Of a DNA stretch of 39,759 nucleotides, positions 31,102-38,894 are shown in pieces (the first letter of the stretch is position 1; each line of letters starts with the position of its first letter). Location: positions 1 through 39,759 of the forward strand of contig JBFEXS010000005.1 in NCBI GenBank assembly GCA_041562555.1, read 5' to 3'. Source of the DNA: Sulfurimonadaceae bacterium. Its GTDB lineage: Bacteria; Campylobacterota; Campylobacteria; Campylobacterales; Sulfurimonadaceae. A program made the translations under genes and the position numbers. Below the pieces are notes generated by a model. That model saw nothing but the letters and a program-made list of their open reading frames with translations. It was not told where the DNA came from and did not search any database.

Positions 31102-31187
31102 AAAGTAAATTACACAAAATCCTACAACGCCCTCGCCTTTTTATATACTTTTTGTTATAATCTATCATAATCAGGGGGGAGACTGCG

Positions 31188-34796: not shown

Positions 34797-35717
34797 TTAG
34801 TAGTCTATACTAAAACCAATTCCAAAATTATATCCTTCTAATCCTTCAGCTCTTACAGTACTCACTTCCGTATAAAACCGTCTTGCCCAGGAAGGAGACT
34901 CCGGCGTGTTCCAGTAAGCCACGGCTCCCACATTAAGATAGCGGCTCAAACCAACCACATCCATGATATCGCCATGCAGATAATTCGCCCTGATATAGCT
35001 CTCAAGACTTAGATAGTTTTGCTCATACCTTAGTAACGCAGGGGTTTCTGCTCCCAAGGAAACACTCGTCACATCTGATTGTGTTTTAAAACCACTTAAT
35101 ACGTCCAAGGTGAAGTCCGCCTTTGTCTCATAGGATTTGAATGCAGCCTTTGTATAGAGTCTGTATTGACGTATCTTCTTCTCATACTCTGCACTGAGCA
35201 TAATCTTATAGGAGATATTATTATTATATTCATCATCAAAGAAGTCTTCTATTGCTCCACCTATGTCATCTTTGGGCTTTACGCTGGTTCCGACACGAGA
35301 ATAGATAACACCCAGGCTCCCCATAAAATCTATACCGAGGTCACTTCGATACCGTAGTCCACCGCCAATACCTGCTGTATATGTCTGTAACTTGTTATCA
35401 TGGGTCAATTCAATATCTCCACTCGCTGTCCTTTGGACCGTTTGTGTATCCAAACGAGTGATAGAATATCCAAAACCTCCATTGATAAACCAATTCATAG
35501 TGTCATCAAAAGTCTCAAAATGACGTGTGAAGGGAAGAGTATATGTCTGCATCTTAAACTCTGAATTGGTAAAGCGGTAATGTCCTGAACTCAAGCCCGA
35601 TTCAGAGGTAAATATTAATAAGGCATTAATATTTGATAAATAGACTTTTTGCGCTGTCTCCTGAGGGGTCTGAGCAAGAAGCAGATTACATAAGGCTACA
35701 AGTAATAAAAATCTCAT
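34797..35717 (-). CDS. Outer-membrane beta-barrel protein (solitary autotransporter-barrel-like)
   Basis: Signal peptide from MRFLL, alternating beta-strands, C-terminal aromatic (GFSIDY), no passenger domain. Confidence 0.7.
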   Translation of the reverse strand: MRFLLLVALCNLLLAQTPQETAQKVYLSNINALLIFTSESGLSSGHYRFTNSEFKMQTYTLPFTRHFETFDDTMNWFINGGFGYSITRLDTQTVQRTASGDIELTHDNKLQTYTAGIGGGLRYRSDLGIDFMGSLGVIYSRVGTSVKPKDDIGGAIEDFFDDEYNNNISYKIMLSAEYEKKIRQYRLYTKAAFKSYETKADFTLDVLSGFKTQSDVTSVSLGAETPALLRYEQNYLSLESYIRANYLHGDIMDVVGLSRYLNVGAVAYWNTPESPSWARRFYTEVSTVRAEGLEGYNFGIGFSIDY

Positions 35718-35729
35718 GTGCCAGTATAC

Positions 35730-35810
35730 AAAAAAACCCATTAGAAAAATCTCTTCAAACAGGATGATCGCAGATAGCGTACAGGTCTGGTCTCTGATAT
35801 TTCCATTAGG
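35730..35810 (-). ncRNA. Possible small hairpin RNA or attenuator ending in U7
   Basis: CCUAAUGGAAAUAUC pairs with GAUUUUUCUAAUGGG (with G-U pairs) and is followed by seven U. Confidence 0.3.
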
Positions 35811-35883: not shown

Positions 35884-36291
35884 TTGCCAACAGAAACAAC
35901 CCTTGAACAGACCTCATTTTTGGGAAAGTGTTATATCCATTGGAAAACACGACATTATGGTCGTAAGATTGAAGCTATCGCTTTACTGATAAGTGTCGCT
36001 ATCTATATGAACAAAAAAATATACGAGGAGGAGCTCAAGAGTGCTTCTCGATATCTTTTAAACCTTATGGAACATCCTGCTGATGTAGAGAACGTCATGG
36101 AATACGTCAAAATGAAACTAAACGCTTATCAAGAGGATAACGAGAGCTGGCTGGAAGATAGACAGGAGGCCTTTAATCTTATCATTAAAAATGAAGAACT
36201 CTATGACTGTATGAGTGACATCTTCAACTCGGACGAAAGTTTTGATGAGAGTGAAGAGATCTTTGAAGAGGCCTTGAAACGTCTCTTATGA
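35884..36291 (+). CDS. Hypothetical protein coupled to cca
   Basis: TTG start with AAGG RBS and TATACT -10; ATGA overlap with cca; helical and acidic. Confidence 0.75.
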   Translation: MPTETTLEQTSFLGKCYIHWKTRHYGRKIEAIALLISVAIYMNKKIYEEELKSASRYLLNLMEHPADVENVMEYVKMKLNAYQEDNESWLEDRQEAFNLIIKNEELYDCMSDIFNSDESFDESEEIFEEALKRLL

Positions 36292-37658: not shown

Positions 37659-38147
37659 TCATGTACCTTTTTTATCTTTTTTCTCTTGATGAACAGATAG
37701 TATCCAAAGCCAATTGACCAGATAGTAACCGCCAACTGAGAAGATGACTGAATAAAAGAAGGTTCCTACATATAAAGGAACAAAAATATTACCGATATTT
37801 TCCGTGAACCATTCCATGGTCAATTGAATGTCCCCAATCCCTTCTTGCATCAATAAAAAGTTTCCCGTAATATACTCGATATAGTAGATAAAAGGCATCG
37901 TAAAAGGATTGGTTATCCAGACAAGAGAGACCCCAATAGGGACATTGAAACGAAAAAACGGAGCAACAAGAATTACAGCCAGCATTTGCATAGGCATCGG
38001 GATCATCGCTATAAACATCCCTACCAGAATTGCACGCGAGACCATTCGTCTATTAACGCTCAATAGATCTTTTGGGATCTTGTACTTTTTCATAATAGCA
38101 TCGAGTTTAGGGTTTGATCTCTTTTTTTTAAAAACTTTTCGTATCAT
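37659..38147 (-). CDS. DUF2062 membrane protein
   Basis: IPMPMQM, N.PI...WITNPFT motifs. Confidence 0.88.
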   Translation of the reverse strand: MIRKVFKKKRSNPKLDAIMKKYKIPKDLLSVNRRMVSRAILVGMFIAMIPMPMQMLAVILVAPFFRFNVPIGVSLVWITNPFTMPFIYYIEYITGNFLLMQEGIGDIQLTMEWFTENIGNIFVPLYVGTFFYSVIFSVGGYYLVNWLWILSVHQEKKDKKGT

Positions 38148-38270
38148 ATCTACTATTTTTTATTTTTGATAATTATACCCTTTTAGTCCTTTTATCAGCA
38201 GATTTAAACCATAAGTTGCTAAAACTTCATCTTAATGTGACTATATCGCGTGAATTTAAGGGATTAATGC

Positions 38271-38413
38271 GCTTACACCTCGTGGGAGAATCGGTGTAAG
38301 CAATGAATTGGTTTTTAGGGAGAATGTACCTTTTAAACTGATAAAAGGTATCGGCTTTCGCCGAAAATGAATAGAAGAGAAAAGAAGCTTAGGGAAGAAC
38401 TTCTTCTCTTTCT
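38271..38413 (-). ncRNA. Candidate structured small RNA with repeated C/U-rich motifs
   Basis: TATAAT at 38425-38420, predicted start about 38413; four hairpins including a GAAA tetraloop; three UUCU(U)CCC motifs; no credible ORF. Confidence 0.6.
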
Positions 38414-38501
38414 GGGTGTATTATAAAGAGCAATTGTGTGAAGAATGTGTAAGTGTTATGAGATTGATCACTGAATGTCACTTTTTTTCAAATTTAAACG
38501 A

Positions 38502-38894
38502 TCACAGCTTTGTACTGTCAATCTCAACTACCGTGTGCACATTTCCACGGGGATTAAAATCTGCTGTGATCTTCATATATTTGGGTTTTAACTTTTTTTC
38601 CAAAACATCATAGATCTCATTCGCCGTATTTTCATGGGAGATATGTCTGTCTCTAAATGAATTAATATACAGTTTGATGGCTTTTAATTCGACGACATAG
38701 GCATCAGGTGTATACTCTAAATAGATCGTCGCATAGTCAGGGTATCCCGAACGCGGACACAAGCATGAAAACTCCGGAAGGGTCATCTTGATTAAATAGT
38801 TCTTTGAATGTTCGTTCGGCCAAATTTCCAAATCTTTCTCTACATCAAATTCACTGACGATCTTTTCACCATATTTCATATCTATTTCCTTCAT
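38502..38894 (-). CDS. queF: NADPH-dependent preQ0 reductase QueF (short type I)
   Basis: EFSCLCPRSGYPD, VELKAIKLY, SHE, FNPRG. Confidence 0.96.
   Translation of the reverse strand: MKEIDMKYGEKIVSEFDVEKDLEIWPNEHSKNYLIKMTLPEFSCLCPRSGYPDYATIYLEYTPDAYVVELKAIKLYINSFRDRHISHENTANEIYDVLEKKLKPKYMKITADFNPRGNVHTVVEIDSTKL

Follow-up and report, generated by a model that had tools for sequence, protein, structure and literature searches.

An RNA gene candidate between queF and a DUF2062 gene

The window, by which we mean the whole stretch of 39,759 nucleotides of Sulfurimonadaceae DNA analysed here, carries on its minus strand queF (38502..38894; preQ1 synthase, TIGR03139 above cut-off) and, downstream of it, a DUF2062 gene (37659..38147; PF09835). 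The intergenic gap between the two holds the element studied here, also on the minus strand. A first-pass annotation had placed a small RNA (sRNA) in this gap, with a perfect TATAAT, four hairpins and repeated C-rich motifs. The −10 element TATAAT is present at 38420..38425 and is kept in relatives, the C-rich motifs stand on the minus strand at the positions given for them, and all four hairpins (38413-38373, 38364-38351, 38350-38327, and 38301-38271) were recovered from sequence and fold. For hairpin 1 (38373..38413) the bounds stood and the loop had to be redrawn, because the predicted fold gives CUUCCCUA (38397-38390) with the flanking UU/AG paired. In a 158-nt fold of the minus strand the MFE and centroid structures coincide (−47.2 kcal/mol, z = −7.97), and none of 200 shuffles folded as well.

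Read in the direction of the putative transcript, the loop of hairpin 1 is the first of three C-rich sites (CCC in 30/39 members of the family described below) and is followed by AUUCAUUU (38365..38372), the anti-AUG half of the family seed in alignments A1 and A2. Then come hairpin 2 (38351..38364), which is UCGGC-GAAA-GCCGA with a GNRA loop, and the 9-bp hairpin 3 (38327..38350). C-rich site 2 is the unpaired anti-SD sequence AUUCUCCC (38318..38325), with [U/A]CUCCC in the middle region of 34/39 members; the unpaired stretch UUCUCCCUAA covers 38315..38324, and the unpaired linker UAAAAACCAAUUCAU (38303..38317) is complementary, at every position, to nt 1-15 of the pgpA coding sequence. The terminal hairpin (38270..38302), possibly a terminator, has a 9-bp stem (38301-38271) and presents C-rich site 3 in its loop GAUUCUCCCACGA (38292-38280), where UCUCCC is kept in 34/39 members. 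For TTCTCCC, the expected number per 170 nt of this genome is about 0.01; the stretch has two copies plus TTCTTCCC.

In 27 of the 37 members with the promoter box described below, the first run of purines starts 6 nt past the −10 element, from which we infer a start at about 38413. With a putative 3′ terminus near 38265, the predicted sRNA would be about 150 nt long (38265..38413). The tails beyond the last hairpin are weakly U-rich. Model R1 matches 38264-38415, its only match in the window and in the own genome (G000). The earlier statement that the RNA could not be assigned to a known family held: against Rfam 15 the best matches of the window element had E values of 2.5-10, far under the gathering thresholds, with nothing credible down to E = 10, and 11 loci from relatives and from a second RNA family gave 0 Rfam matches. 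We regard the element as a candidate RNA gene that, as far as the sequence can tell, is real, uncatalogued and structurally conserved.

Distribution and conserved core of the RNA family

In a DNA search of 200 genomes of the taxonomic family, strong matches were confined to one genus. A covariance model built from 13 copies, with most genomes of the genus within its training set, matched G000, 9/11 genus genomes and 2/138 others. The two matches outside the genus (G129 and G147) were rejected as antisense to a coding region and without the box or the C-rich motifs. Once G082 and G094 are counted, the family is present in 12/17 genus genomes; it was not found with the covariance model in G029 (89% complete) and G076 (99% complete), and the DNA search, the only one applied to them, gave no match in G088, G114, and G122 (61-84% complete). 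Six of the ten genus genomes with model matches hold 2-3 copies, G118 also has a second copy, and G000 has one. In G118, the seed also matches exactly at a site that forms no ORF (G118:C127:5085-5154), probably another copy of the RNA family. A pattern scan of metagenomes returned 63 loci, 16 of which held 21 model matches; the other 47 were dropped for want of a convincing model match. The same pattern, which covers the 3′ half, occurred in 0/400 other genomes of the phylum; being exact, it would miss remote homologs.

Alignment A3 comprises 39 distinct members with 62% mean identity; its input of 33 loci left out L055, L058, L326, and L327 as identical or near-identical copies and L178 as weak. 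In the terminal helix 351/351 cells are paired, with double changes in 8/9 pairs and 24 G-U cells, and none of 500 shuffles nor the slid controls come near this pairing, a result that is favoured by the fitting of A3 to the covariance model. A strand-neutral count gave 22 G-U against 1 A-C in the 3′ helix and 24 G-U against 21 A-C in hairpin 1, which has 5 modelled pairs and is 87.7% paired in A3; an earlier count of wobbles pooled over both helices had given 37 against 25 (p = 0.16). The compensatory changes of the terminal helix and its 24 G-U pairs fix the minus strand as that of the RNA.

We regard a functional transcript of the plus strand, whether as a sponge for CsrA, with AGGGA/GGA motifs in its loops, or as a gene for a small peptide that uses GGGAG-AUG, as very improbable. 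That strand has ANGGA-type motifs, and csrA is present in the own genome. Its fold is weaker (z = −3.0), with disagreeing MFE and centroid structures and an unstable ensemble, and on it the terminal-helix G-U pairs would become A-C mismatches. The conserved promoter is directed along the minus strand, none of the 39 members has an inward TATAAT within 80 nt on the plus strand, and the plus-strand ORFs, compared in 28 members, run from 2 to 60 codons with no conservation of length. The GGA motifs thus lie on the strand opposite both the promoter and the G-U signal, unlike what a CsrB/RsmZ-type sponge calls for.

The C-rich sites are kept in loop 1 (30/39), the single strand (34/39) and the terminal loop (34/39). 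Hairpins 2 and 3 of the window copy are matched only in one copy of the closest relative, G063, where the counterpart of hairpin 2 has a different loop and that of hairpin 3 is shorter; at that position, a handful of the remaining members carry insertions with no relation to these. Because the two hairpins are thus a lineage-specific insertion, the family core consists of two hairpins. On these alignments the RNA represents a new family with one to several copies per genome in most of one genus. One paralog subgroup (L070, L071, L178, L320, and L331) has a longer, bulged hairpin 1 without the C-rich loop and precedes a lipoprotein gene; in G000, the lipoprotein gene precedes a second CrdR-like regulator.

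Independence from the neighbouring genes

DUF2062 lies within 420 nt downstream in 19/39 members, as would be expected if the element were a 5′ leader or attenuator of that gene, and the weak terminator tail would make read-through possible. This reading, together with that of a 3′ element of queF, has little probability in our view, since 20/39 members lie elsewhere and the DUF2062 gene has a −10 element of its own (GGGTATAAT, 38172..38180, in the window). A TAYAAT within 60 nt of the DUF2062 start was found in 19/19 members followed by this gene, and it is also kept in G029 and G076, where the RNA is missing from that locus. Paralogs occur before other genes, two of them face a convergent downstream gene, and other genes often intervene between queF and the RNA. 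The nearest DUF2062 loci have 76-83% identity.

The first-pass annotation had taken the element for an RNA gene of its own on the minus strand, with unpaired C-rich seeds against SD sequences; covariation, the conserved promoter, the paralogs away from DUF2062 and the lack of an Hfq match in the 89%-complete genome support this part of its claim, and the target that it named within the window is not retained (see below). We also give hardly any weight to a non-transcribed or degenerate repeat, such as a mobile remnant or DNA-level element whose hairpins serve only as terminators. Copy number and position do vary, tandem duplications occur, and the last hairpin of one paralog ends 9 nt from the end of the convergent gene, all of which would suit such a repeat; against it, conservation of the loops and unpaired seeds goes together with covariation of the stems, and the duplicates, tandem copies included, each keep their own box and −10 element at fixed spacing.

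Some side observations concern nearby genes. queF seems to be frameshifted in G006 and carries an internal stop in the G063 match (loci L044 and L033), which may be assembly error. Two ORFs of the window, at 35884-36291 (+, 135 aa) and 34797-35741 (−, 314 aa), have no Pfam or NCBIfam match, and the product of the latter looks like a secreted outer-membrane protein.

A direct-repeat promoter box and its proposed regulon

Upstream of the −10 element stands a direct repeat with an 11-nt period, ACAC-N7-ACAC (38436..38451, minus strand), a putative site of a CrdR-like OmpR-type regulator. This box occurs in 37/39 members, always exactly 10 nt before the −10 element, and in 21/21 of the metagenome model matches, which were found without using the promoter. 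A consensus promoter scan did not list the window promoter, which has no TTGACA-like −35 element. The motif has some likeness to a DnaA box, a reading that we did not keep, since what is conserved is the repeat at a fixed distance from the −10 element.

A matrix for the box, whose training set was 22 promoter strings, all of them from relatives (two being shifted duplicates), ranks the window promoter first in the own genome, where it finds 10 sites above 17 bits, compared with 1 in the reversed genome. The high-scoring sites include those of a second RNA gene, a 130-aa protein without assignment, msrP, dsbD, and htrA, and weaker ones precede MoxR and a TerB/DnaJ protein. A pattern version of the box also finds dgkA, which opens an operon that further encodes an OmpR-type regulator and a kinase and lies about 3 kb from htrA; the dgkA box is a variant with 11-nt spacing that scores poorly with the matrix. 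In this operon (L128:10977-13140, G000:C2, −), TATAAT lies between the box repeats, an arrangement conserved in relatives, and the variant may reflect self-regulation of a different sign. One box site, on C82, was dropped as antisense inside a gene. The survey of the genus covered 30 loci and 60 further listed sites; among the clustered loci, own-genome loci included, the box precedes dgkA in 8 (with the own-genome locus counted twice), a Bax1-I gene in 8, MoxR in 10, and msrP in 6. The 130-aa protein (L131:1376-1768, G000:C32:12375-12767) has no Pfam or NCBIfam match and is boxed in 7 loci across the genus. Other high-scoring boxes precede ORFs that are short or were not called and that have good SD sequences (G000:C76:10441, C104:2452, C58:2212, C35:12565, and C19:24952), likely small proteins of the regulon.

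A strict box pattern, applied to 5 genomes of other genera, had matches in two. In one of these, G001, a copper island holds five of the six sites; there the box precedes an efflux operon of the Cus type and, adjoining a multicopper oxidase, a CopZ-RR-HK operon. The best G000 matches of the response regulator and histidine kinase of the latter are the dgkA-linked pair (44% and 35%). Within the island (L311-L312, G001:C1:1910000-1949999), boxes precede an outer-membrane efflux protein and a CopZ zinc-domain gene, and an ATP:guanido phosphotransferase gene is also present. Two further boxed genes there encode what we take to be a DoxX-like protein and a small Cys/Lys-rich secreted protein. The accessible text on H. 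pylori CrdR gives its core site as AACACC-ATTT-CCACAA (10.64898/2026.06.29.735229) and has it controlling copper efflux (PMC9696931). The box found here resembles that site. With CrdRS, as far as the accessible text describes it, the present system would thus share an OmpR-type regulator acting on AC-rich promoter motifs and, in G001, a similar set of copper genes; it differs in that the boxed genes of this genus are mainly envelope quality-control genes, and in that the accessible parts of the two sources describe no sRNA in the CrdR regulon (10.64898/2026.06.29.735229, PMC9696931).

From these sites we infer a regulon that responds to envelope damage and is controlled by a CrdR-like regulator. 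As to its identity, we lean slightly towards the response regulator of 215 aa encoded in the dgkA-RR-HK operon (G000:C2:71114-71761), a candidate by association only; the paralog C10:8305-8979, with the same recognition-helix motif LRTYIKNLR, would be an alternative. A protein search with the regulator returned generic names, none of them CrdR or DccR.

The same box precedes a second RNA family in 16/17 genus genomes, represented in G000 by a stretch with box and hairpins (L132:122-256, G000:C58, +) and elsewhere by L141, L147, L159, L165, L169, L174, L181, L187, L189, L195, L196, L201, L203, L206, and L217. In this family a closing stem, GAAGUCAAAGAG/CUCUUUGACUUC, joins both ends around hairpins with CCCC loops; the RNA may be an RNase III substrate. 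The G000 and G063 copies have no inner C-rich hairpin, four other copies carry the pgpA seed described below, and three loci examined against Rfam gave no match. Boxed, ORF-free hairpin stretches with CUCCU were also seen in G076 (L176:665-864, −), G029 (L186:665-864, −), and G105 (L190:138-337) and are possibly more sRNAs of the regulon, G076 and G029 being the two genomes that lack the RNA family studied here.

Complementarity to translation starts

In 20/39 members the single strand is UCAUUUAUUCUCC, which complements GGAG-5 nt-AUGA, and UCAU stands 2-6 nt ahead of xCUCC in 24/39 members. In the window copy these two halves are split by the insertion, hairpins 2 and 3 separating the anti-AUG segment from the anti-SD sequence. 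In statistics from 2002 crudely called genes of the own genome, 5 nt is the commonest SD-AUG spacing (134/483) and AUGAA the commonest start (447/2002). Because a seed that matches the commonest shape of a start region may hit many mRNAs, we treat the target lists as soft, and envelope-gene enrichment in the own genome is weak: GGGAG leaders belong to outer-membrane-like genes in 4/56 cases against 24/1218 (p = 0.03, uncorrected for ten motifs tried), and for all envelope classes p = 0.2.

Exact GGAGAATAAATG starts gave 27 matches in the genus, namely 10 RNA genes, 2 non-ORF sites and 15 ORFs. Judged by their N-termini, 13 of these 15 ORFs look exported or membrane-bound; fadL appears among them three times, along with OprD-type porins, DUF3373, BatD, and a sulfur transporter. 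The comparison set, ten genomes from other genera, yielded 10 matches, 9 of them ORF-like, and of these 1/9 looked exported by eye over 20 codons.

A plain duplex ranking without accessibility proved unspecific and was discarded. When accessibility was taken into account, the ranks of the window RNA against 1944 start regions of the own genome were pgpA 1, ccoP 3, exbD 5, fadL 8, and OprD porin 10, and cytoplasmic genes were also among the top predictions. In G000, pgpA lies at C104:3274-3792, fadL at C66:9624 and the OprD porin gene at C3:25901-27403. We did not adopt exbD as a target, since its leader is the same in G029 and G076, where the RNA family was not found. ccoO and ccoP rank high among the predicted targets. 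Several cbb3 oxidase genes at G000:C12:9920-13411 and C50:2203-3636, ccoO and ccoP by Pfam and presumably ccoN and ccoG, have GGGAG leaders, which are present in only 68/2002 genes. The GGGAG leaders of the cbb3 oxidase genes are possibly targets or a habit of the lineage. The first-pass annotation had proposed as a target the G-run at 31174-31182. The run is there; it is absent from 11/11 orthologous leaders and ranks 168/1944, and we did not retain it as a target.

fadL falls in the top 1% for 9/12 cognate seeds, scored against a background of G000 genes with related genomes that are not independent, and in the top 9% by a simple duplex score with the middle seed of the window copy. Its leader has GGGAGA in 9/17 genus genomes against 0/19 loci of other genera and GGAGAA in 11/17 against 7/19; in G029 it has GGGAG although the RNA family was not found there. 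The pairing with pgpA is a perfect 15-mer from the AUG, and pgpA holds the only other match of this 15-mer in the genome; shuffles equalled it in 9/2000 cases for the linker (0.45%) and in 20/500 for the whole RNA (4%). Across 17 genomes the 12-nt core of this pairing occurs 26 times, compared with 6 for a reversed control: 12 occurrences are pgpA starts, 7 are boxed RNAs (3 of this family and 4 of the second) and 7 lie elsewhere. The seven boxed copies thus come from two families in 6 genomes, and only 3/39 members of the family studied carry the seed. The pgpA start is identical in 4/5 other genera, and its conservation is therefore no sign of co-evolution. Comparison of targets between genomes covered fadL, pgpA, and the 31188 gene, the one with the G-run leader. 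We predict fadL, porins, and pgpA as the best targets.

The main alternative, which leaves the RNA and its promoter control unchanged, is a broad translation damper whose seed, mimicking the anti-SD of 16S rRNA plus an anti-AUG, would reduce initiation on many GGAG-AUG mRNAs, or else a decoy whose C-rich loops titrate a protein, with no specific envelope targets in either case. The fit of the seed to the commonest start-region geometry, the weak envelope enrichment in the own genome and the presence of ccoP, exbD, and cytoplasmic genes among the top predictions would suit it, and three redundant sites in several gene copies would suit titration. We nevertheless judge it unlikely, because exact seed matches fall mostly on exported proteins in the genus (13/15, against 1/9 outside) and the 12-nt seed specific to pgpA recurs in two RNA families.

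Proposed function and comparison with known systems

Family, structure, strand, shared box, boxed genes and complementarity can be read directly from the sequences. The function that we consider probable is that of a stress-induced, Hfq-independent sRNA that would cover envelope mRNAs at their ribosome-binding sites and start codons; Hfq had no match in the own genome (89% complete). In this model, an OmpR-type envelope- or copper-stress regulator would bind the promoter box and have the RNA transcribed, the signal being periplasmic protein damage, possibly from copper. The RNA, with its three exposed C-rich sites, would anneal to fadL, porin, and pgpA mRNAs at their ribosome-binding site and start codon and block their translation. 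In the window copy the C-rich sites would act on the GGGAGAA leaders of fadL and the OprD porin, and the linker on the start of pgpA. The RNA would thus serve as a repressing arm that works without Hfq, so that fewer outer-membrane proteins would be newly made during repair of the envelope by htrA, dsbD, and msrPQ.

By analogy, the closest counterparts appear to be LhrC and the csRNAs rather than RepG or CJnc190. LhrC1-5 of Listeria monocytogenes is described, in the accessible text, as a multicopy sRNA of about 110 nt with two stem-loops, controlled by LisRK and pairing with SD regions (PMC4132741; Rfam RF00616), and its UCCC sites lie in loop A, a stretch that is single-stranded and the loop of the terminator (PMC4132741). 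The family here is likewise multicopy and about 110 nt long, with a two stem-loop core and UCCC-type sites in the same three places, all three being present in the window copy; two-component envelope-stress control and SD pairing would be further points of likeness and are predicted here. It differs in its Gram-negative host, its other box and the anti-AUG half of its seed, and the only own-genome match of the RF00616 model lies elsewhere (C9), at 21.4 bits compared with 110.

The streptococcal csRNAs, in the accessible text of their description, are sibling sRNAs that follow a direct-repeat box, the site of an OmpR-type regulator with htrA also under its control; they hold anti-SD and anti-AUG sequences unpaired between two stem-loops, their gene context is variable, and the CiaR box is TTTAAG-N5-TTTAAG (PMC3091779). 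The present RNAs share with them a direct-repeat box that also precedes htrA, anti-SD and anti-AUG sequences between stem-loops, and a variable context. They differ in that the box is an ACAC repeat and not a CiaR box, there is no Rfam match, the family also has C-rich loops, and the predicted targets are outer-membrane proteins.

From the same phylum, H. pylori RepG targets a G-repeat and C. jejuni CJnc190 is processed by RNase III with an antisense partner, according to the accessible text of the two sources (PMC8687705, PMC8322730). The likeness, within those limits, lies in the phylum, a C/U-rich loop against G-rich leaders, and the lack of Hfq; in the same accessible parts, neither RNA is described as multicopy or under a CrdR-type box (PMC8687705, PMC8322730). 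Targeting of G-rich leaders would have its parallel in the predicted GGGAGAA leaders, and not in the unconserved run at 31174-31182. No homology to RepG or CJnc190 was detected with Rfam and an exact pattern in 400 genomes of the phylum, a search that would miss remote homologs. E. coli CpxQ is a single, processed, Hfq-dependent RNA. As far as the accessible text goes, it forms the non-coding arm of a two-component envelope-stress response and lowers FadL (10.1101/2024.10.18.618624); a FadL-lowering arm, co-regulated with degP-type quality-control genes, is what we would predict here too.

A wider hypothesis, which we put forward tentatively and with more doubt than belief, is that a Gram-negative lineage free of Hfq independently evolved a system of the LhrC/csRNA type, in which two or more unrelated families of C-rich sRNAs would answer to one CrdR-like regulator and turn off the synthesis of porins, FadL, and phospholipids (pgpA). 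The pgpA seed would then be a portable module, carried by a family that differs from genome to genome.

RNA arms of envelope-stress responses are known elsewhere in CpxQ, LhrC, and the csRNAs. Our literature search found none for Campylobacterota and no sRNA study of Sulfurimonadaceae, although one review (10.1111/mmi.14850) could mention relatives. The rule of box plus spacing found RNA genes in 16/17 genus genomes and offers a direct way to seek CrdR- or DccR-dependent sRNAs in other Campylobacterota. If the proposed function is true, what the analysis provides is a box for a regulator together with its regulon, an RNA family, and specific target pairs open to reporter tests, and the system would be a clear case of convergent sRNA design between Gram-positive and Gram-negative bacteria.
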